This document shows, piece after piece, positions 15,843 through 60,962 of a DNA stretch of 64,000 nucleotides. The position numbers were made by a program, and so were the translations under genes. Below the pieces are notes generated by a model. The model did no database searches. It was not told the origin of the DNA and was given only the letters and a program-made list of their open reading frames with translations. Within the stretch, counting starts at the first letter, position 1; each line of letters starts with the position of its first letter. The DNA comes from Candidatus Omnitrophota bacterium (GTDB lineage: Bacteria > Omnitrophota > Gorgyraeia > Zapsychrales > JANLHA01): the NCBI GenBank assembly GCA_031423615.1, contig JANPFV010000082.1:4208-68207 (forward strand). The letters are read 5' to 3'.

Positions 15843-16071
15843 AAGATCCTTTTTAACGCCGTGTGCAAGTTTTGATCTATCGTTAGGATTGGTCCTTGCT
15901 GATTCGACCAGTCCTTTTGAGGCTCATTTGTTTTGCGCCTCTATGGCGCTATTCGCCTCAAAAGAACTGATCGGATCAGCAAAACTTTCACAGCGTGTCT
16001 TTTAAAAAATTTTATTGTCCCGCGACCGCCGGCAGTATCTTACCACCGGCGGCCATAATCGGTTAATGGAT

Positions 16072-27821: not shown

Positions 27822-27875
27822 CTGATGGGTCCCGACGCTGCGGGCGGCAGAATATTTCCCGGCGCGTCACCCAAG
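27822..27875. repeat. Partial (right-half) copy of the GC-rich MITE-like repeat also found at 50211-50287 and 54414-54505.
   Basis: GCTGCGGGCGGCAGA is identical to the 50.2 kb copy, followed by the similar tail TTTCCCGGCGCGTCACCC. Confidence 0.45.
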
Positions 27876-27876
27876 C

Positions 27877-29967: not shown

Positions 29968-30058
29968 TTTATCTCCCTTTTCAAATCAGGTCTTGTCGCT
30001 GGGATCCTGGCGTCCTTACTTTCTTCCGGACAAAAAAATCCTGCGCGCCCCCTGTGCT

Positions 30059-32381: not shown

Positions 32382-33181
32382 ATCAGCTGTTTCTTCACAT
32401 ACTCAACGCCGTTTTCAAAAATCTTTGCGCCCTGACCCCGCTTTTCCTTCATTCCCCGGCGTGTCCAAGAGGGATGCTGGATCGAAAGAAAATGACGTTC
32501 GGGATGCGGCATCAATCCTAACACCCGGCCCGTCGAATCCGTGATCCCGGCAATGTTATCGACGGCATTATTGGGATTTTGCGGATAAACCGGTTGTTCT
32601 CCCTTTTCATCACAATAACGCAAGACAACTTGACCATTATCTATCAAATATTTTAAAACTTTATCGTCGGCCGGAACAAATTTTCCTTCCGCATGCGCCA
32701 CGGGTAAATAAATAACATCGGTCATGCCCTGGGTCCAGACCGAATGTCCGTCGGGCTTAAGGTGAACCCAGCGGTCTTCGAATTTTCCGGAATCATTGTG
32801 CGTCAATGTGACACTTTGGATAAATTCCGGATCGCCATTTTTATGACTCCGCCCCGGCAAAATCCCCGCCCGCGCTAAAATCTGGAAGCCATTGCAAATG
32901 CCAATAATCAATTTTCCGTCGATAATAAAGCGTTTTAACTCATCTCCCAACCGCAACCGAAGCTCATTCGCCAAAATGCGGCCGGAAATGATGTCATCGC
33001 CGTAACTGAATCCGCCGGGAATAGCCAGAATCTGATAATCCCGCAGATTCTTTTCCCCGCTCAGAAGACGATTGACATGCACGCGCTCAGCGATAGCGCC
33101 CACGCTTTCAAAAGCGAAAACCGTTTCACGATCGCAATTGGTGCCGGCGGTGCGTAAGACTAGGACTTTGGGTTGAACCAT
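32378..33181 (-). CDS. purQ: FGAM synthase glutaminase subunit.
   Basis: Class I glutamine amidotransferase with GICNGFQ and HPE motifs. Confidence 0.9.
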   Translation of the reverse strand: MVQPKVLVLRTAGTNCDRETVFAFESVGAIAERVHVNRLLSGEKNLRDYQILAIPGGFSYGDDIISGRILANELRLRLGDELKRFIIDGKLIIGICNGFQILARAGILPGRSHKNGDPEFIQSVTLTHNDSGKFEDRWVHLKPDGHSVWTQGMTDVIYLPVAHAEGKFVPADDKVLKYLIDNGQVVLRYCDEKGEQPVYPQNPNNAVDNIAGITDSTGRVLGLMPHPERHFLSIQHPSWTRRGMKEKRGQGAKIFENGVEYVKKQLI

Positions 33182-36801: not shown

Positions 36802-36947
36802 AAAGGGGGGAAACTCTTATATTTATCAAAATTCTTATATTTTTTTGAACTGCAAGGGGGCAACCGAGGAGCGAAGCGAGGCGTACTAAAAAGTACGTTA
36901 AGCGAGCACCGAAGTTGCAACGAAGCAGATCGCCAAACGCAAAAATC

Positions 36948-37652
36948 TTATTTGCTGACGCGACTTAAGACTTCCTGATAGGCTTCTTCGATATTTCCCA
37001 AATCCCGTCGAAAGCGGTCCTTGTCCAGCTTATCACCCGTTTTGGCGTCCCAAAGCCGGCACGTGTCCGGTGAAATCTCGTCAGCGAGAATAATTTTGCC
37101 TTTATATTTACCAAATTCCAACTTAAAATCAATCAATTTGATATTAAGAGAGGCAAAAAATTTGAGCATGAGCTCATTAATTCTTAAAGTGTATTTCTTG
37201 ATTTGATCCACATCTTCATCGGTAGCGAGTTTAAGCGCCCGGATGTGCGTTTCATTAATCAGGGGGTCGTTGAGCTTGTCTTCTTTATAACAAAACTCCA
37301 GAACCGGACAAGCTAATGTCGATCCTTCTTCAATGCCCAAAATCCTGCACAAAGAACCAGCCGCAACATTGCGGATAATGACTTCCAAGGGAACGATTTG
37401 AACCCGCTTGACCAACATTTCACGATCACTCAAAGATTTTTCAAAGTGGGTCGGAATGCCGGATGCCATCAAATATTCAAAGATCTTGGTTGAGATCTTG
37501 TTATTGATGATCCCCTTATCATGAATAGATCCTTTTTTCGCCGCATTAAACGCCGTAGCATCATCCTTAAAATATTGAATCAAAAGATCCGGGTTGTCGG
37601 TCGTATAAAGGATTTTAGCTTTACCTTCATAAATTTGCTCGCGCTTTTCCAT
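36948..37652 (-). CDS. purC: SAICAR synthetase.
   Basis: YEGKAKILY N-terminus and full-length PurC similarity. Confidence 0.9.
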   Translation of the reverse strand: MEKREQIYEGKAKILYTTDNPDLLIQYFKDDATAFNAAKKGSIHDKGIINNKISTKIFEYLMASGIPTHFEKSLSDREMLVKRVQIVPLEVIIRNVAAGSLCRILGIEEGSTLACPVLEFCYKEDKLNDPLINETHIRALKLATDEDVDQIKKYTLRINELMLKFFASLNIKLIDFKLEFGKYKGKIILADEISPDTCRLWDAKTGDKLDKDRFRRDLGNIEEAYQEVLSRVSK

Positions 37653-40846: not shown

Positions 40847-42836
40847 GACTGGCCAATTCTTTTAAAAGTCCCTGCAATATTTCGTCATTCGGATTCACTT
40901 TAAGACCCTGCTTCCAAATAAAGGCGGCTTTTTCAAACTGGCCGGCGTTGGCAAAAATCTTTCCCGCTTCGACATAAGCAAAAAGATCTTGAGGATAGAG
41001 GGCTATGGCCTTTAAATAATATTTTATCGAATCTTTAATATGTCCTTTCCTCGCCAACAGGCCGCCCAACTCCTTTAAGAAACCTTGCCCCTGAATCACC
41101 AGCAAAAAATCTCCCGCGCGGTCAATTGTCGTTTGTGATCCGTGATCTTTCAGACTGAGAGCCAAAAGAGCATACAGCACCCGTTCATCCTTGGCTTGTT
41201 GGGCATACGCCCGACGGTAAAATTCCAATGCTTCTTCCCAATGCCCCTTTTGTTCCAAGACCTGACCCAAATTCAAATAAATTTCCAAGCTATAGGGATT
41301 GAGCGCATTGGCTTTACGCAAATGTTCCTCAGCCGCATCCAGTTTCATTTTTCGCAAATAGCACACACCCAAATTATTGTGTGTAACCGAAGATTCCGGA
41401 TTAACCTCCAGAGACTTTTTAAAATAATCAATGGCTTGGGCTTCTTCCCCTTCCTGCCACGCCATGTCGGCTAAATTTGTATAGATCTGCCAATCACTGC
41501 GCTCATTCGCAATAGCCCTTTGAAACCACATCTTCGCTTCGGCAAACTGGCCACGCAAAAACAAAGCATTGGCTAAATAAAAATTGACCATCTTATTTTG
41601 CGGTGCCTGTTTCTGCCAGTACCGGCACTGCCGGACTTCGTCCGCCCATAGGAAATTATACCGTTGAGAAACCACCGCCGGAACAATGATGATGACGGCC
41701 AGCAGACTTAAAAAGATCCCGGAGTCTCCCGCCCTTTTTATTTTCATGACAAACAGACTGGCCAAAGTGAATAAACCGATCGACGGGAAAAAAAGCCAGT
41801 GGGGTTCTATCATAAACCCTTCTTCCGGCCGGAACAGACAGCCCACTAAAATCGGCAACCATCCAATAAGAAACCAAAATAAAAAGGCGGTCTTTCTGTC
41901 ACGCAAACCCCATCGATAAATCAAAAAAACAATCGTTCCCATTCCGGCCCAAAAAACGCTTAACCATAAAACAAGGCGATTTTGCACGAGAGGAGTTGTC
42001 CACATCAGGACAATGCCTTGCAAGGTAAAAATTTTAGCGATATACCACGTAAAAATCTTTGTAAAGGTCGCGGCGTAATTTCCTAACGTCAGGCTGGAAA
42101 AACTGCCGGCACTCTCCAACACACTCACCTTCACACCGGCATAAATTAATGCAACTACAAAAAATGGCCCCGCGGAGGCAATCGACGACAGGCCACTTTT
42201 TTTGAAAAATACAAAAGCCACGAGAATCAAATAAAAAGGTAATGTCGCGGCGGTTTCGTGACACAACAATGCGGCCACAAAACCCAGCAAACTTAAAATA
42301 AAATAAAAATTTTTACGGCTTGTCCCGGTCATCGCTTGAGAATAAAAATAAATCGCCCCCAGCATCATGATGACCTCAACGGCTAAATATCCCGCCGAGA
42401 CATAATTGACCATCAATGTATTAATCGGATGAACAGCAAAAAGCACGGCGGTTAACAAACCCACATTGTCATCTTCCGTCAAACGCCGGATAACAATGTA
42501 AATCATAAAGCAGATCCCAACGAGCAACGCCAAATTCGTCAAGTGGTAGAAAACAACGTTTTTCCCAAACCAGAAATATTCCAAAGAAATAAGGACATGG
42601 CACAGCGGGCGATAATCCGTAGCGTAGGCCGAAGACTCCAATCCCAAAGACTTATTCCCTCCGGGCAGAAAATTATATAAAATCCTGTGCAGATTTTGCG
42701 TTAAAGGATTTTTTAAGAAAAGCGAATCATCATCAATCATAAAAGGATTGCCCAAACTGGAGCCATAGAGGGCAAAACAAAGCAAAAAAAGCAATCCCGA
42801 GACTAACCACATCCGTTGAGAAATATTCTTAAGCAT
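40821..42836 (-). CDS. Membrane protein with a GT39/PMT_2-like multi-TM N-terminal domain and C-terminal TPR repeats (TMTC-like).
   Basis: About 11 TM helices followed by at least 6 TPR-like repeats. Confidence 0.55.
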   Translation of the reverse strand: MLKNISQRMWLVSGLLFLLCFALYGSSLGNPFMIDDDSLFLKNPLTQNLHRILYNFLPGGNKSLGLESSAYATDYRPLCHVLISLEYFWFGKNVVFYHLTNLALLVGICFMIYIVIRRLTEDDNVGLLTAVLFAVHPINTLMVNYVSAGYLAVEVIMMLGAIYFYSQAMTGTSRKNFYFILSLLGFVAALLCHETAATLPFYLILVAFVFFKKSGLSSIASAGPFFVVALIYAGVKVSVLESAGSFSSLTLGNYAATFTKIFTWYIAKIFTLQGIVLMWTTPLVQNRLVLWLSVFWAGMGTIVFLIYRWGLRDRKTAFLFWFLIGWLPILVGCLFRPEEGFMIEPHWLFFPSIGLFTLASLFVMKIKRAGDSGIFLSLLAVIIIVPAVVSQRYNFLWADEVRQCRYWQKQAPQNKMVNFYLANALFLRGQFAEAKMWFQRAIANERSDWQIYTNLADMAWQEGEEAQAIDYFKKSLEVNPESSVTHNNLGVCYLRKMKLDAAEEHLRKANALNPYSLEIYLNLGQVLEQKGHWEEALEFYRRAYAQQAKDERVLYALLALSLKDHGSQTTIDRAGDFLLVIQGQGFLKELGGLLARKGHIKDSIKYYLKAIALYPQDLFAYVEAGKIFANAGQFEKAAFIWKQGLKVNPNDEILQGLLKELASLSAEKKQP

Positions 42837-50210: not shown

Positions 50211-50287
50211 GGCGGGTTCTGTCGCTGCGGGACTCTACCGTCCTCGCAAGCTGCGGGCGGCAGAGAACTCCCCTTTGCGCCACCCGC
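50211..50287. repeat. GC-rich MITE-like repeat, copy 1 (shorter, internally deleted).
   Basis: Shares GTCGCTGCGGGACTCTACC...CTCGC...GCAGAGAACTCCCCTTTGCGCCACCCGC with the reverse complement of 54414-54505. Terminal inverted repeats GGCGGGT / ACCCGC. Confidence 0.6.
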
Positions 50288-51465: not shown

Positions 51466-53637
51466 TTATATTTTAGTTAGACCTTGTCGGATCGCCCCTT
51501 GGGTCACTTGCAAAAGATAATCCAGTTCACGTTTTGAAATGGACAAGGGCGGCATCAACACAATCACATTCCCTAGGGGCCGCAAAATAACCCCGCGACG
51601 ACGCGCCTGTTCGCAAACCTTGATTCCGGCCTTATCTTCCCAGGCAAAAGGTTCCCGGGTGGCTTTGTCCTTGACCAGTTCAATACCGGCCATAAATCCC
51701 TTGTGCCGGACATGTCCGACGTGAGGTAAATTATAAAACATTTTTAACTTTTCGCTTAAAATATTTATCTTGGAATGCAAACGCGCCAAGGTATGTTCCT
51801 TGGCAAAAATTTCTAAATTAGCCAGCGCGGCGGCACAGGCCAAGGGATTTCCGGAATACGTATGACCGTGAAAAAATGTTTTCTGGTCCTTATACTCAAA
51901 GACAAAACCGTCAAAAACTTTTTTCGTGACCAAGGTCGCGGCCAACGGCAAATAACCTCCGCTTAACCCTTTGGCCAGACACAAGAAATCCGGCGTGACA
52001 TTGTCGTGTTCACAGGCAAACATTTTTCCCGTCCGGCCAAAACCCGTCGCCACTTCATCAGCAATGAGTAGAACCTCATGCTTTTCACAAAGCTCTTTGA
52101 TCTGCTTTAAAAGGCCGTCCGGCCAGACAATCATTCCCGCCGCTCCCTGCACCACAGGTTCGACAATCAAGACCGCTATTTCTTTAGCCGACTGATGAAA
52201 GAGGGCTTCCAGTTTCTGAAAAGCGTGATCAAAGTTCTGGTCGCGATAACCATCAGGAAAGTCAATTTGTACCGTCGGAAACGTTAAATCTTCATACACT
52301 TTATGAAAAAGGCCGATCCCTCCTACGCTCACACTTCCCAACGTATCGCCATGGTAAGAATTCGCCAGATGAACAATTTTTATTTTTTCCGGACGGCCGG
52401 TATTTTGCCAATATTGATACGCCATCTTAAGGGCGATCTCAACAGCTGTCGATCCATTATCGGAATAAAAAACTTTTTTTAGACCTCGAGGTGCGATCGT
52501 CACCAATTTCTTGGCCAATTCTATAGCCGGAACATGAGAAAGTCCCAGCAATGTCGAATGGTCCAAATGATTCAGCTGATCTTTGATCGCCGCATTAATG
52601 GCAGGATGATTATGGCCATGGACCGTGACCCAGAGGCTAGAAATTCCGTCGAGATAACGCCGTCCTTGCGTATCAATCAAATGGCATCCTTCGGCTCGGT
52701 CAATCACCACGGGGTCCGAGTCCAGCCAATCTTTCATTTGCGTGAAAGGGTGCCAAAGAAAATTCTTGTCGTCATTAACAAGGGAGCTCGTTTTTGTCGA
52801 GTCGGCATAAACCAAAAAGGGGTTGAGGTCTATCTTATCTTTACAAATCTTAAGAATGGCCGCGCAGGAAAGATCCTCACAAAAGGGGATGATTCCTAGC
52901 CCGGGGACCTTGCTAAAATGTTTGATCGCTGCGGGATTGGTTTTTTCGGGCACACCGGGAATTTTCTTTTCACTTTCTGAAAAAATAATACCGGCGACAG
53001 GGATACCCCGGTCGCGGGCTTTGTCAATCGTCAACAGCGTGTGATTGATCGTCCCCAGGCCCAAACGGCTGACAATCACCACCTCGATGCCCATGTCCTT
53101 GATCAGATCCGCAAGCAAATAATCTTCCCGTACCGGCACCATCAATCCGCCCGCACCCTCGACGAGCAAAACATCATGACGCCGCCGCAGTTTTTGAAAA
53201 ATAGAAATTATTTTTTCGCGATGGATCTGTATTTTTTGGCGTTTAAAAGCCACGTGCGGAGAAAAAGGTTCCTTGGCGCAGTAAGGATTTATCTCGGCCA
53301 AGGGGTCGGTGCTCTGCAAGAATTCCTTTAAAACTTTCGCATCATCGCCCCCGCATTGAATCGGTTTCATCACACCGACATCCAAACCTTTGTCTTTAAG
53401 AAGCGTGGCCAGGACCTTGATCGCCGTGGTTTTCCCCACACCCGTATCCGTTGCGGAAATAAAAAACGCCCGTCCCTGTTTTGGTTTTCCTCCTTTGAGA
53501 GGACGCCCGGCGATTTCAGGAACTTTTCGCGGTTTTTCCGCGGGCTTTTCTATTTCCTCATCGATTTCATCAAGGCAATCTAAAGGACTGATCGCATCTT
53601 CATCTTGTTTTCTTTTCATTTTCTCCCCTTTATCCAA
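51466..53637 (-). CDS. Bifunctional dethiobiotin synthetase (BioD) / adenosylmethionine-8-amino-7-oxononanoate aminotransferase (BioA) fusion with a 50-aa charged leader.
   Basis: BioD P-loop GTDTGVGKT in the N-terminal half; class III aminotransferase in the C-terminal half. Confidence 0.85.
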   Translation of the reverse strand: MDKGEKMKRKQDEDAISPLDCLDEIDEEIEKPAEKPRKVPEIAGRPLKGGKPKQGRAFFISATDTGVGKTTAIKVLATLLKDKGLDVGVMKPIQCGGDDAKVLKEFLQSTDPLAEINPYCAKEPFSPHVAFKRQKIQIHREKIISIFQKLRRRHDVLLVEGAGGLMVPVREDYLLADLIKDMGIEVVIVSRLGLGTINHTLLTIDKARDRGIPVAGIIFSESEKKIPGVPEKTNPAAIKHFSKVPGLGIIPFCEDLSCAAILKICKDKIDLNPFLVYADSTKTSSLVNDDKNFLWHPFTQMKDWLDSDPVVIDRAEGCHLIDTQGRRYLDGISSLWVTVHGHNHPAINAAIKDQLNHLDHSTLLGLSHVPAIELAKKLVTIAPRGLKKVFYSDNGSTAVEIALKMAYQYWQNTGRPEKIKIVHLANSYHGDTLGSVSVGGIGLFHKVYEDLTFPTVQIDFPDGYRDQNFDHAFQKLEALFHQSAKEIAVLIVEPVVQGAAGMIVWPDGLLKQIKELCEKHEVLLIADEVATGFGRTGKMFACEHDNVTPDFLCLAKGLSGGYLPLAATLVTKKVFDGFVFEYKDQKTFFHGHTYSGNPLACAAALANLEIFAKEHTLARLHSKINILSEKLKMFYNLPHVGHVRHKGFMAGIELVKDKATREPFAWEDKAGIKVCEQARRRGVILRPLGNVIVLMPPLSISKRELDYLLQVTQGAIRQGLTKI

Positions 53638-54401: not shown

Positions 54402-55306
54402 ACTTCTTCCACCCCGGGTCCGGGTGGCGCGGAGGGGAGTCCTCTGCCCGACGAGCCAGACTTTAGCTGGCGAGGCGGGTAGAGTCCCGCAGCGACAGGA
54501 CCCGGAACAATTTCAATAAATTTTTCTACCGCAGCATTGAATGCATGCGGCTGGCTTAGAAACGGAAAGTGTCCGCATTTTTCAAACCAAACGAATTGCG
54601 CCGACGGTATTTTATCGCCTAAGTTTTCATAGAATTCCCGCTGACAAATGTAATCTTCCGTGCCGTTGGCAAATAAAACCGGCAGGGTCAATTTGGAAAA
54701 CGCATCGCGTAAATCGGCGCATTCTAAAATTTCCAAGAAATTAATAAGGGCCTCTTTCTGCGGAACGCTATCGGTTTTCTTAAATCTCTGTATCCACCGA
54801 AACCGTCGTGTTTCGCGTTCTTGCCGGGTAAATAATGAGCGAAAAAAAATATCCACTATCGAAGGATAATCCCTTCGCAATTGTCCCGCCAATTTGCGAA
54901 TGCGCTCTGGGGCCAGCCCAAAAGGATAATCCTCAGAACGGCAAAACTTCGGTTGCGAACCGGCGCAAACAATAAACTTGATGCGTTCACGGCGTAATTC
55001 TAAAAGTTTTAAAGCCACCAAACCACCGAACGAACTGGCGATAAGACCCATTTCTTCACAATTGAGATCAGCCAATAGAAAGTCCACATCTTGTGCGATG
55101 CTTTTTAAGTCGACCTTTTGCCAATCCGTTTTTCCGTGTCCCGGCAGATCGAGAGCGATGACCCGATGTTGAGAAGAAAAGTATTTGAACTGTTGTCGCC
55201 AAATACGGCTGTTGACGCCGAAGCCGTGCAAAAAAAGCAAGGTTGAGCCCTGGCCAGCGATTTCATAATGCCAGTTCAATCCTCGCGGTGTTTTTAAATA
55301 AGGCAT
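54398..55306 (-). CDS. Alpha/beta-hydrolase, BioH-like pimeloyl-ACP methyl ester esterase. The last ~36 codons are encoded by the MITE-like repeat.
   Basis: HGFGVNSRIW...GHGKTD nucleophile-elbow region; the low-complexity tail PGPVAAGLYPPRQLKSGSSGRGLPSAPPGPGVEEV maps onto the repeat. Confidence 0.7.
   Translation of the reverse strand: MPYLKTPRGLNWHYEIAGQGSTLLFLHGFGVNSRIWRQQFKYFSSQHRVIALDLPGHGKTDWQKVDLKSIAQDVDFLLADLNCEEMGLIASSFGGLVALKLLELRRERIKFIVCAGSQPKFCRSEDYPFGLAPERIRKLAGQLRRDYPSIVDIFFRSLFTRQERETRRFRWIQRFKKTDSVPQKEALINFLEILECADLRDAFSKLTLPVLFANGTEDYICQREFYENLGDKIPSAQFVWFEKCGHFPFLSQPHAFNAAVEKFIEIVPGPVAAGLYPPRQLKSGSSGRGLPSAPPGPGVEEV
54414..54505. repeat. GC-rich MITE-like repeat, copy 2 (full length, about 92 bp, terminal inverted repeats CCGGGTCC / GGACCCGG).
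   Basis: Alignment with copy 1; terminal inverted repeats and an internal GCGGG-N6-CCCGC hairpin. Confidence 0.6.
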
Positions 55307-58653: not shown

Positions 58654-58704
58654 AATAGTTTCGGACGTTACCATAAAGATGTTGTGCCGTCCTTCATACG
58701 ACGT

Positions 58705-58794
58705 CATCAACGCCACAGCCAAACGGCTGTGAGGCGTTGCGCCGTCGCAAAAACTCCGCCATCAACGCCACAGCCAAACGGCTGTGAGGCGTTG
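58705..58794. repeat. Two copies of a 35-bp near-perfect palindrome separated by 20 nt, in the divergent nifS / tRNA-Ala promoter region.
   Basis: CATCAACGCCACAGCCAAACGGCTGTGAGGCGTTG occurs at 58705-58739 and 58760-58794. The second copy's 3' end supplies the TTGACA -35 of the tRNA-Ala promoter, with TATATT -10 at 58815-58820. Confidence 0.55.
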
Positions 58795-58832
58795 ACAAAT
58801 AAAAATCCCAATGCTATATTGGGAAATCTTTT

Positions 58833-58905
<73 letters not shown>

Positions 58906-59047
58906 CTTGTTTCTCTAAGTAGAGCGTCCCGCTTAACACGCGGGAAGAACACGATTTCGACTTTCGTCAGCTTTACTTGTTTCTCTAAGTAGAGCGTCCC
59001 GCTTAACACGCGGGAAGAACACGTTCTCGACTTTCGTCAGCTCCACC
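58906..59047 (+). pseudogene. Two tandem ~70-nt degenerate tRNA-3'-two-thirds-like units (D-arm 3' strand, anticodon arm, T-arm, acceptor 3' strand) directly abutting tRNA-Ala.
   Basis: The units begin CTTGTTTCTCTAA GTAGAGCG TCCCGC-UUAACAC-GCGGGA ... CGTCAGC, matching the tRNA-Ala framework (GTAGAGCG ... CGTCAGCTCCA). They have no 5' acceptor or D-stem partner. Unit 2 ends CAGCTCC-A-CCA. Confidence 0.55.
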
Positions 59048-59104
59048 AAGTTTTTTGTCGAAGACAAAATTTCTCCGAAGGGTCGCTGGTTTAGAATTTT
59101 TATT

Positions 59105-59188
59105 GCTGGAGTGGCGGAACTGGTATACGCGCTAGTCTCAAAAACTAGTCACTTCACGGTGGTGAGGGTTCGATTCCCTCCTCCAGCA
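59105..59188 (+). tRNA. tRNA-Leu (anticodon CAA), type II with a long variable arm.
   Basis: GCUGGAG acceptor, a GUGGCGGAACUGGUAUACGCGC D-arm close to E. coli tRNA-Leu, a CUCAAAA anticodon loop, a long variable arm and a GGGUUCGAUUCCC T-arm. Confidence 0.85.
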
Positions 59189-59220
59189 TTTATTTATCTG
59201 CTTTACCCGTCGGTATTTCA

Positions 59221-60306
59221 TTACTTACTTCCCTTCTCTGGCACACGTTTTGGCACAAAACCCAAGTCTATTGTTGTTACTTTCAGCCCTTGTTTGACCG
59301 CTTCCTTTGAGCTGTGGGCATAATGTTCAAGGATCGTCCGGGTGTCCTTATGGCCCGTTATAGACTTAATAACCTCCGTGTTCCCTGTCTGGTCAAGAAG
59401 GTTAGTAACAACCCGGTGGCGAAAAATATGCGGGGAGATCGGCTTCGTGATACCACATCTTTTAGCGGCCCATTTTACGCGCTCGTAAATTTTATTTCTG
59501 CCCTGCAAATTGCCTCTCCTGCTTGGAAAAACAAGACCTTTGGGATGATACAGTTTTCGTTTTCTTAACTGGTGAAAGTGTTCCGCTAAGATCATGACAT
59601 CCTGCTCTTGAAGATCGTGGGCACGTTCCACACCCGTTTTGGTTTCGCGGATATAGATTTTATTTGCCTCTAAATCGACGTCGCTGACTCGCAAATGCCT
59701 CAACTCGTCTCTGCGCCATCCCCACGTTGCCATCAAATAGACCCAAGGGAAAGTGATGATGTCGTTCTTCTGAAACCACAAAAGGATATTCTTAACCTCA
59801 ACATCTGTGGGAATCTGTACGACCTTCTTCACTTCTTTTAAATATCGTATGTTCTGGATAGGAGACTGATCAAAAATTTTGTCCTTAACAGCTTGGCAGA
59901 AAATTATCCTTAAATTACGAAGGTCACAGTTGATGCCGGCGGCGGAACGAGGCTTAGGCTTCGTCGTTTCTTGAGCATGGATATAATCACGGATCAAATT
60001 CTCGGTTATATCCTTTAAAGATATATCTCCGCAACTGGCTAGAAATCTGCTGAAACTGAGGGCTGTAAATTCACAGCGGATCTTCGTCGAAGGAGTCTTG
60101 TATCTCTTTTCAATGAACATAGCGGCAAAATCTGAAAACTTCAGGTCTTTCCGGGGCGGTTGTGTCCCCTCAACCTCACGACGTGTCGCCTCCTTGCGGG
60201 CGGCGGCTTGCGTATATTTATCAAAAGGTAATGGGTCATAATACCTAACGCCCTTAACACGCCACCAGATTTGCCAGTATCCTTTTCTTTTACGAACTCC
60301 GGCCAT
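59221..60306 (-). CDS. int: Tyrosine-type site-specific integrase; start re-assigned to MAGVRKRKGYW.
   Basis: C-terminal catalytic HIFRHRVVTNLL ... GHKDTRTILEHYAH (R, HxxR and Y); the stop lies 32 nt from tRNA-Leu. Confidence 0.85.
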   Translation of the reverse strand: MAGVRKRKGYWQIWWRVKGVRYYDPLPFDKYTQAAARKEATRREVEGTQPPRKDLKFSDFAAMFIEKRYKTPSTKIRCEFTALSFSRFLASCGDISLKDITENLIRDYIHAQETTKPKPRSAAGINCDLRNLRIIFCQAVKDKIFDQSPIQNIRYLKEVKKVVQIPTDVEVKNILLWFQKNDIITFPWVYLMATWGWRRDELRHLRVSDVDLEANKIYIRETKTGVERAHDLQEQDVMILAEHFHQLRKRKLYHPKGLVFPSRRGNLQGRNKIYERVKWAAKRCGITKPISPHIFRHRVVTNLLDQTGNTEVIKSITGHKDTRTILEHYAHSSKEAVKQGLKVTTIDLGFVPKRVPEKGSK

Positions 60307-60466
60307 CGCTCTCCTCAGAACAAGCCTTGAGGACTTGTTCAACATCAAAACGTCGGTGCTTCCCTATCCTAAGAGATTTAATTTTACCTTCCCGCACGTA
60401 TCGCATTACACTTGACGCTGGAACTTTTAGAATCTTCGCGATCCCCTCAACATCTGTGATGTGCAT
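60290..60466 (-). CDS. xis: Excisionase/AlpA-family HTH DNA-binding protein (58 aa), not in the ORF track; overlaps the int start.
   Basis: Hand-translated as MHITDVEGIAKILKVPASSVMRYVREGKIKSLRIGKHRRFDVEQVLKACSEESDGRSS; GGAGG Shine-Dalgarno 6 nt upstream. Confidence 0.6.
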   Translation of the reverse strand: MHITDVEGIAKILKVPASSVMRYVREGKIKSLRIGKHRRFDVEQVLKACSEESDGRSS

Positions 60467-60596
60467 TGGCTTCCTCCATAGTTATTTGCTTGTCTCGGCC
60501 ATTCTTTCTTGTCTAACAAGTAAGAATATATCCTAAAGCGTGGCGAATGTCAAGCAACTTTCTTGACTAGAAGGTAAGAAATGCTATGATTGGGTT

Positions 60597-60962
60597 ATGC
60601 GAAAATCGGAATATCCAAAAGAGGCCAAGACTCTCGGCCAAAGAATAAGAAAGAAGAGGATGGATTTAGGCTATACTCTGCTCGAAGTAGCAAAGGCGGC
60701 ACAAATAAGTGAAGGTTATCTTTCGCGGATCGAAGCAGACAAACAGATTCCGAACAGCCTTGTTGCTACCCGTCTTGCAAAAAAACTCGAGGACGATGTC
60801 AATTTTTATTTAATGGCGTCATTAAAAACAGACTTATCGACCGATATATTAAAGGAGATACTCAAGCGAATGGAAAAGTCCCCCTCCACGCCTGAAAGTG
60901 AAGTGCTAAAAACTATATTGGAGCAATTTCTGCCAAAGAAAACTCCCAAAAAACTTAAATAA
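60597..60962 (+). CDS. XRE-family (Cro/CI-type) HTH transcriptional regulator, likely the element repressor.
   Basis: HTH MDLGYTLLEVAKAAQISEGYLSRIEADKQIP; the promoter TTGACT-16 nt-TATGAT ends 6 nt before the ATG, so the mRNA is leaderless-like. Operator inverted repeats GTCAAG-N7-CTTGAC and CTTGT-cta-ACAAG lie upstream. Confidence 0.7.
   Translation: MRKSEYPKEAKTLGQRIRKKRMDLGYTLLEVAKAAQISEGYLSRIEADKQIPNSLVATRLAKKLEDDVNFYLMASLKTDLSTDILKEILKRMEKSPSTPESEVLKTILEQFLPKKTPKKLK

Follow-up and report, generated by a model that had tools for sequence, protein, structure and literature searches.

A family of small, GC-rich hairpin repeats is dispersed among the operons of a 64-kb stretch of DNA (hereafter the window) from a member of the uncultured phylum Omnitrophota (contig JANPFV010000082.1, positions 4,208 to 68,207 of the forward strand). 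The window carries two intact and two decayed copies (Table 1), and at least 13 further distinct copies occur outside it, in Omnitrophota metagenome-assembled genomes (MAGs), in one MAG labeled "Planctomycetales", and at one Legionellales-like gammaproteobacterial locus. The copies have identical boundaries and a covarying secondary structure, and they are present or absent at syntenic sites in a related genome. The explanation we favor, with a probability of roughly 0.55, is that these sequences form an unnamed family of non-coding, non-autonomous repeats of the kind represented by repetitive extragenic palindromic (REP) sequences, REPINs, and miniature inverted-repeat transposable elements (MITEs), which would be mobilized in trans and co-transcribed with the operons in which they reside.

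Copies in the window

A preliminary description, prepared from the letters of this stretch, had reported three copies of an inverted-repeat element of 77-92 bp. The two main copies are indeed present at their reported places and in opposite orientation, and they have in common an exact 21-mer (GGTAGAGTCCCGCAGCGACAG) as well as a 28-mer in which no more than one position differs. Each of these words occurs twice in the window, in opposite orientation, where none is expected by chance and none was found in shuffled windows. The GC content of the two main copies (0.68-0.70) is likewise far above that of the window (0.46), as had been noted. The third reported locus also holds a copy, but the total of three was too low, because a decayed fourth copy at 29984-30057 had been overlooked.

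All four copies lie within a minus-strand gene array. Searches with Pfam and NCBIfam models confirmed pgi, mnmA, rpiB, and glyA as flanking genes and placed the remaining copies between purD and purE and at the junction of BioH-like and BioC-like genes in a bioF ... bioA cluster; the BioH-like and BioC-like proteins score below the NCBIfam cut-offs.

Table 1. Copies of the hairpin repeat and related features of the window, with the state of the syntenic sites in the Omnitrophota MAG SJ432
Feature	Position	Strand	Setting and details	Covariance model	Same site in SJ432
Intact short-type copy, 74 nt	50213-50286	-	mnmA-pgi spacer, sense with operon; left arm 50286-50262, apical hairpin 50261-50237, right arm 50236-50213	84.6 bits	21-nt stub CGGGT-GCAGGCAGGACCCG, both termini kept
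Intact long-type copy, 84 nt (28 codons)	54421-54504	+	bioH/bioC junction, antisense to operon; left arm 54421-54445, apical hairpin 54446-54480, right arm 54481-54504	110.9 bits	intact copy (L007), same orientation, 83/84 identical
Copy-specific CCGGGTC	54414-54420	+	directly outside left end of the long-type copy; repeats the element terminus; absent from the other 16 copies		
Internally deleted copy, 54 nt	27823-27876	-	rpiB-glyA spacer	25.3 bits, E about 6e-4	
Decayed copy, 74 nt	29984-30057	-	purD-purE spacer, sense with operon	26.9 bits, E about 2e-4	
purL/purM-type spacer	32383-32397		no copy		short-type copy
Spacer with unrelated repeat	36803-36955		no copy of the element		long-type copy
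BioH-like alpha/beta hydrolase open reading frame (ORF), 302 aa	54398-55306	-	NCBIfam BioH model matches residues 18-264 only		

Boundaries and secondary structure

A covariance model was built from 17 aligned distinct copies, which score 66-111 bits against it. The alignment places sharp common ends at CGGGT...ACCCG in all 17, and these replace the broader limits proposed earlier; members of the family measure 70-84 nt, and the intact copies of the window 74-84 nt. The only conserved terminal inverted repeat (TIR) comprises these 5 bp. The longer TIRs of the preliminary description consist of copy-specific flanking bases that happen to pair, including the CCGGGTC outside the long-type copy, which is able to pair with GACCCGG at 54499-54505.

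Two near-invariant arms of about 24 nt each, CGGGTGGCGCGGAGGGGAGTYCTCT on the left and AGAGTCCCGCAGCGACAGGACCCG on the right, enclose an apical hairpin that exists in at least three unrelated versions. A long type of 35 nt is found in the window copy at 54421, and a short type of 25-29 nt is found in the window copy at 50213 and in L001, L002, and L005b (loci outside the window carry the prefix L). The third version, an AT-rich stem of sequence AAAAATTGC-GTA-GCAATTTTT, is carried between unchanged arms by the Legionellales-like L011 and L014. What had been taken for an internal deletion in the short copy of the window is therefore a replaced apical hairpin (25 vs 35 nt) and not simply a loss. 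Similarly, the internal GCGGG-N6-CCCGC hairpin described earlier is real in the long type only and does not represent a pairing conserved across the family.

RNA folding, which had been proposed as a check on the first description, yields a single long imperfect hairpin with four helices that is supported by covariation. The basal stem (CGGGU/ACCCG) is extended by one or two flanking pairs of free sequence, helices 2 and 3 are the invariant CGC/GCG and GGGA/UCCC, and a helix formed by CUCU/AGAG leads into the apical stem-loop of replaceable sequence. Invariant unpaired bases lie between these helices (GG opposite ACAGG, GGAG opposite GCA, and a GUC/GUU bulge). In the consensus fold, 96.7% of cells are paired, compared to 26-46% when the partners are slid. 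Double changes occur at five pairs, and the covariation score exceeds that of all 500 of 500 shuffles. Compensatory changes include C to A with G to T in L004a and U-A to C-G in L005b, and paired deletions are present in L005a and L008. Helices 2 and 3 never vary, and thus covariation neither supports nor contradicts them. Past the first 5 bp, the two arms are only about 60% complementary.

The strand that reads "CGGGTGG" is the more stably folded one, by 4-10 kcal/mol over its complement, whether treated as RNA or as DNA. Its fold contains 15 G-U cells and no A-C cells, with 12 of the 15 belonging to one inherited position. As an example, the RNA fold of the intact short-type copy reaches -43.2 kcal/mol (z = -3.7), and its stem is lengthened by one flanking pair, G50287-C50212, in which G50287 is the final base of the mnmA stop codon TAG.

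No consistent target-site duplication accompanies the 17 copies, of which three have a trivial 2-nt match and the rest none, and none was seen in one comparison between a filled and an empty site. The first base outside each end is complementary to its counterpart in 14 of the 17 copies, with all four Watson-Crick types represented (P about 1e-6), and in eight copies this complementarity is two or three bases long. Either the element is in fact N-CGGGT...ACCCG-N' with selection for pairing of the outer bases, or it inserts at the center of short palindromes or pre-existing hairpins.

Family members outside the window

A search for copies elsewhere had been suggested as a check on the first description, and such copies are readily found. 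A genome scan with an exact 20-mer, covering one genome per species, gave nine matches, seven of them on six contigs of the Omnitrophota MAG SJ432, one in Omnitrophota HK-STAS-OMNI-2, and one in the MAG labeled Planctomycetales. An eighth SJ432 copy (L005 6479-6550), which lacks the exact 20-mer, was recovered with the covariance model, giving eight copies on six contigs. A metagenome scan with the left-arm pattern added eight contigs, two of which duplicate SJ432 loci. The density of copies is four in the 64-kb window and eight in about 42 kb of SJ432 loci that were chosen for carrying a copy. The long-type copy of the window is 100% identical over 86 nt to an SJ432 copy at a different locus (L004 6542-6627). 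Had there been neither copies elsewhere nor TIRs upon proper alignment, the preliminary description would have had to be abandoned; both exist, the latter at a length of 5 bp.

The most distant members, L011 and L014, represent one locus in two related AT-rich organisms (GC 0.35-0.38). The ferredoxin-NADP reductase encoded beside this copy has its best named matches in Legionella and Tatlockia, at about 50% identity, and the element resides upstream of the next gene and in the same sense. Relatives of this locus are non-syntenic and carry no copy, and are uninformative on conservation there.

The element has no evident counterpart among named families, as the preliminary description had already remarked. 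Rfam searches of the window at gathering thresholds gave no match to it, and a permissive search with three copies (E up to 10) returned only noise and no match to riboswitches, self-cleaving ribozymes, RNase P RNA, or SRP RNA. Concatenated six-frame peptides of the element matched nothing at E <= 1 in a protein search, and literature searches by taxon and repeat terms and by sequence strings found no description of it. No family member was present in the viral contigs, phage records, and plasmid records searched. Several candidate matches were rejected along the way: a high-GC viral contig shares an 18-mer by chance, a match of 22 nt to a Microcystis phage and one of the AT-rich apical stem to small Acinetobacter plasmids do not denote family members, and a covariance-model match at 41598-41680 (19.8 bits), inside a 671-aa TPR-repeat ORF, was treated as chance.

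Turnover and decay at syntenic sites

Two stretches of the window have syntenic counterparts in SJ432, with a nucleotide identity of 70-80%, and 4-fold degenerate sites are only 31-43% identical between the two genomes, which is close to saturation. The state of the element differs at three of the four syntenic sites (Table 1). At the fourth, the bioH/bioC junction, the adjoining 16-19 nt can no longer be aligned.

The copies at 27823 and 29984 and the SJ432 stub form a decay series, in which the interior is lost and the basal stem persists. The rpiB-glyA copy had been described as a right-half fragment, but it retains both termini and has lost its interior; its closing C-G pair has become U-A, and the segment shows 78% identity over 36 nt. 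The purD-purE copy no longer folds better than shuffled sequence. Gain and loss of copies, together with the decay series, suit a repeat that is mobile, or dynamic in some other way, better than a regulatory site that stays in place.

Other short repeats are present in the same genomes. The window spacer that holds the studied element in SJ432 is occupied by a second short repeat family (GTTTGGCGATCTGCTTCGTTGCAACTTCGGTGCTCGCTTAAC, 36897-36939, minus strand), which is 95% identical to L002 5862-5905 in the "Planctomycetales" MAG. A third hairpin repeat, TTTTGAGGCGAATAGCGCCATAGAGGCGCAAAACAAATGAGCCTCAAAAGGAC, occupies 15910-15963 (minus strand) in the spacer that follows clpB and shares about 85% identity with a copy at L002 5943-5996, which adjoins the second family.

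Position within operons and effects on genes

The space that a copy fills starts at the stop codon of the preceding gene and ends about 15-25 nt short of the following start codon, and copies abut stop codons and ribosome-binding sites. The 27823 and 29984 copies fill their intergenic spacers exactly, and only about 7% of the window, which is densely coded, consists of such spacers; the former starts directly after the rpiB stop codon and ends 14 nt short of the glyA ATG (27808).

The earlier statement that all copies reside in intergenic spacers of operons holds for these tight spacers but not for the copy at 54421, which is in frame within the 3' end of the BioH-like ORF. Its 84 nt are open in the BioH frame and encode the tail PGPVAAGLYPPRQLKSGSSGRGLPSAPP plus a few flanking residues, such that the C-terminal 34-35 or so residues of the protein derive from the element and its flanks, whereas most homologs are 265-274 aa long. 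The BioH stop codon overlaps the bioC ATG, and the copy ends 19 nt from the bioC start codon. The protein has an identical NCBI entry and hundreds of homologs, all named ones coming from Candidatus Omnitrophota/Omnitrophica MAGs. The same tail is found in the closest homolog (P0002), to which the translated SJ432 junction corresponds, whereas most others are shorter at the C-terminus by 30-35 residues.

Unrelated C-terminal extensions of 10-25 residues are found in other BioH-like homologs (P0005, P0013, P0016, and P0085; that of P0013 reads VIARSVAPKQSQQINVDEIAAPQRGSQ). Different small repeats may therefore have inserted repeatedly at the junction between the bioH 3' end and bioC.

Relative to the flanking genes, about 12 copies are in sense orientation and four in antisense, which is a lean and not a rule. 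Genes are co-oriented with GC skew, and biases of replication strand and transcription strand are therefore confounded. At the two intact copies, nothing resembling a promoter or a terminator was found, and the T-run that would follow the hairpin of an intrinsic terminator is missing from every copy in either orientation.

A model for the spread of the element and its difficulties

If the repeats are indeed mobilized in trans, an enzyme encoded elsewhere would copy the element by recognizing the "CGGGTGG" strand in its folded form, and not double-stranded terminal repeats of some length. The best candidate would be a hairpin-specific, single-strand-DNA transposase of the HUH/Y1 type, comparable to those acting on REP sequences and REPINs with RAYT or on the ends of IS200/IS605 insertion sequences. 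Such an enzyme would account for the absence of target duplications and for the invariant, asymmetric arms. Copies would then persist only where they are harmless, either in the gap of 10-30 nt that separates a stop codon from the following ribosome-binding site within an operon or in frame at the 3' end of a gene, and each would be co-transcribed as a stable intercistronic stem-loop. Old copies would decay through internal deletion, leaving the basal stem. The enzyme, the single-strand mechanism, and any effect on the mRNA are inferred.

Several observations weigh against this proposal. The cognate transposase that the preliminary description had proposed to look for did not come to light: Pfam and NCBIfam scans of the 59 window ORFs revealed housekeeping functions and no transposase gene, and tblastn with two query sequences, a RAYT and an IS200 TnpA, gave no match in 146 kb. 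The sole mobile-element gene of the window encodes a tRNA-adjacent, phage-type tyrosine integrase (59221-60348, minus strand), about 4.7 kb from the nearest copy. REPIN arms are inverted copies of a single REP unit, but those of the element are not. Furthermore, REP/RAYT systems are normally lineage-specific, and yet Omnitrophota and a Legionellales-like gammaproteobacterium carry identical arms. Complementary flanks are also not known to arise from HUH transposition. The scans of public genomes and metagenomes yielded only about 20 copies because they demanded exact 20- to 24-mers, and a high copy number is thus conjectural.

A final difficulty concerns the bioH/bioC junction, where 83 of 84 positions agree between genomes with near-saturated 4-fold degenerate sites. 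A parked selfish copy would be expected to decay over such a distance, and its preservation needs ongoing homogenization, re-insertion, or selection. The conservation of the arms in general could possibly reflect an active and highly constrained master sequence, homogenization between copies, or direct selection on each of them.

Alternative explanations

The strongest competitor, which we regard as possible but clearly less probable than a mobile repeat, holds that the element is a functional structured RNA that has been secondarily duplicated or transferred. It might be a cis-acting intercistronic element, such as a processing or stability signal or a protein-binding site, or else a small ribozyme or riboregulator, and its invariant internal loops would then form the active or recognition surface. 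The unpaired bases do not vary, whereas stems covary and apical stems can be exchanged, and functional RNAs usually show just such a combination. The arms remain identical across phyla, and in the AT-rich Legionellales-like host only the apical stem has turned AT-rich. In that locus, the gene downstream of the copy is read in the same direction as the element. Between the orthologous bioH/bioC copies, conservation goes far above neutral expectation. The better folding of the "CGGGTGG" strand, with its G-U cells and lack of A-C cells, and the roughly 12:4 lean toward sense orientation also agree with an RNA function, even if most of the G-U cells trace to a single inherited position.

Other evidence is difficult to reconcile with such a role. 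Four sites (five copies), the best-conserved copy among them, are antisense to the operon, and no promoter-like site lies beside the two intact copies. Copies have been gained or lost at three of the four syntenic sites, two window copies are decaying, and the neighboring genes (pgi, glyA, purE, bioC) have no common function. The permissive Rfam search, ribozymes included, was silent, and helices 2 and 3, being invariant, are without support from covariation.

A broader version of this idea, to which we give a similarly tentative standing, is that the arms are a structured nucleic-acid module under strong purifying selection, common to Omnitrophota and the Legionellales-like gammaproteobacterium, and no passive selfish repeat. 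The module would then represent a small functional RNA of a new class or else the recognition hairpin of an undescribed, structure-specific recombination system. In the first case, it might act as a self-cleaving motif or as a protein- or ligand-binding motif in operon transcripts; in the second, the system would also demand the complementary flanking pair. The two cases taken together account for the standing given here.

An origin as a classical MITE appears improbable. Under this explanation, the element would be an internally deleted insertion sequence (IS) with a DDE transposase, its arms would be the ends of that IS, and a full-length relative would mobilize it. Conserved ends with a variable interior do resemble deletion derivatives of one IS, and spread across phyla fits a horizontally transferred IS. 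One candidate relative comes from the metagenome contig L012 (1-1733), whose 163-nt terminal inverted arms, 96% complementary, flank a truncated IS630-like DDE transposase ORF (338-1210), and each arm contains the left arm and apical hairpin of the element. However, the right arm is missing from L012, the motif points outward from the transposase gene, and the contig could be either a real composite or an assembly palindrome. It is therefore not used here as evidence for an autonomous partner. IS630 elements duplicate TA, whereas no target-site duplication is seen in the 17 copies. The low complementarity of the arms past the first 5 bp and the absence of a DDE transposase gene from the window are further points against a classical MITE.

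A resemblance to RNase P RNA was also considered, whereby the arms would derive from or mimic the catalytic-core region (J3/4 and J2/4-P4). An exact 11-mer in the left arm (GCGGAGGGGAG, 54429-54439) equals E. coli rnpB 53-63, and an exact 12-mer in the right arm of the 50213 copy (CGACAGAACCCG, within 50213-50236) equals rnpB 345-356, in the same molecular order. With shuffled arms, matches of these lengths arise in 0.3% and 0.07% of trials, and the much longer 16S and 23S rRNAs share at most 9-mers. The resemblance was spotted post hoc, however, and we take the rnpB 11-mer to lie mostly in the 3' strand of helix P3, which is presumably not conserved among bacteria. The universal GGAAAGUCC is absent from the element, rnpB has an A where the family consensus is G, and the pairing topology differs because CCCG pairs with the 5' end of the element. 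No match to the RNase P RNA families of Rfam was returned, even when E values as high as 10 were allowed. By eye, the right arm is also similar to 16S rRNA 1093-1114 at 17 of 24 positions, of which only the shared 9-mer at 1093 was computed, and partial matches of such a size come about easily. Although the two exact matches are real and statistically unusual, the presumed placement of the 11-mer in the poorly conserved helix P3, the differing topology, the silence of Rfam, and the comparable 16S match lead us to judge the resemblance coincidental, and a true relationship very unlikely.

The least credible proposal, that unrelated intergenic hairpins or terminators look alike by chance or convergence, could appeal only to the modest scores of the two decayed window copies (25-27 bits), and it is refuted for the intact copies by shared exact 21- to 28-mers where none is expected, by identity over 86 nt with a copy in another species, by common boundaries in 17 copies, and by the lack of a T-run after the stem or of a terminator-like site at the two intact copies.

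Additional features of the window

An integrated element seems to begin beside the tRNA genes at 58833-58905 and 59105-59188 (window 58681-60962). Tandem 55-nt repeats lie near these genes at 58681-58790, and three repeats with 70-nt spacing, whose unit starts with a tRNA 3' end, occupy 58880-59046. The tyrosine integrase gene is accompanied by an ORF resembling a helix-turn-helix repressor (60597-60962, plus strand). GC content falls to 0.41, and the ORFs up to the end of the window have no Pfam match.

In the biotin cluster, a 723-aa ORF (51466-53637, minus strand) is covered by models of BioA (adenosylmethionine-8-amino-7-oxononanoate transaminase) over residues 280-721 only. Its N-terminal 280 or so residues possibly reflect a fusion, perhaps with BioD.

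Implications

Literature searches by taxon and repeat terms found no repeat element described for Omnitrophota, and the present family provides a first defined example, with boundaries, a structure model, and a covariance model. It can be used to flag annotation artifacts, such as the 34-residue BioH tail and over-extended gene starts like that of the 434-aa glyA ORF, and it might serve as a marker for strain typing and for assembly breaks. The identity of the arms across phyla and between saturated genomes, together with the covarying flanks, is not explained by simple models of parked selfish DNA. Should a cognate enzyme or an RNA activity be found, the element would represent a compact new hairpin-recognition system.

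Comparison with known systems

Known repeat systems offer useful points of reference, and several can be distinguished readily from the present family. Intrinsic terminators carry a T-run that does not follow the GC-rich stem of this element. Integron attC sites are similar in acting as single-strand hairpins with one functional strand, conserved basal stems with extrahelical bases, and a variable terminal structure. However, the RYYYAAC/GTTRRRY core sites, the cassette array, and the integron integrase have no equivalent here; the element ends in CGGGT/ACCCG, and its copies are situated among housekeeping operons in both orientations. Rickettsia palindromic elements (RPEs) are in-frame hairpin repeats that add a peptide to a protein, much like the 28 codons at the BioH C-terminus. 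RPEs are AT-richer, 100-150 bp long, specific to Rickettsia, and mostly within ORFs, whereas the present element lies within an ORF at one site only, bioH/bioC in the window and in SJ432 (L007), and there at the extreme 3' end.

The TIR-type MITEs, which include Correia/NEMIS in Neisseria, ERIC/IRU in enterobacteria, and RUP in pneumococcus, share more features. They are less than 200 bp long, non-coding, and foldable, and they occur in intergenic regions in both orientations, are co-transcribed, and vary in presence between relatives. The element agrees with them in size, lack of coding capacity, and presence/absence polymorphism, but not in its ends: their TIRs are at least 20 bp long and they are accompanied by a target duplication (TA for Correia), compared to a 5-bp TIR and no duplication here. 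No sequence similarity to the element was noticed among these families, and no full-length IS with its ends was seen. The comparison with REP, ERIC, and Correia-type MITEs made in the preliminary description is thus sound as regards a dispersed, non-coding hairpin repeat, but an assignment to the classical MITEs is not supported.

REP sequences, BIMEs, and REPINs provide the closest parallels. They too are short, GC-rich, imperfect hairpins in extragenic spacers, often after stop codons within operons, and are co-transcribed. They lack target-site duplications, one of their strands folds better than the other, and their mismatches and bulges are conserved. Near-identical quasi-species exist beside decayed copies, and the families persist for long periods within a lineage. 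REP sequences and REPINs are mobilized by RAYT, an IS200/IS605-like Y1 transposase whose gene usually has the repeats on either side; no RAYT was found among the 59 window ORFs or, with the two query sequences, by tblastn in 146 kb. REPINs consist of two inverted REP units of 20-35 nt, which makes their arms near-perfect complements, whereas the arms of this element are asymmetric, contain invariant loops, and pair through four short helices only. REP sequences are also species-specific, in contrast to arms that are identical across phyla and flanking bases that covary. Even with these differences, the anatomy of the element appears closer to that of structured hairpins of the REP/REPIN type than to that of TIR elements of the Correia or ERIC type.

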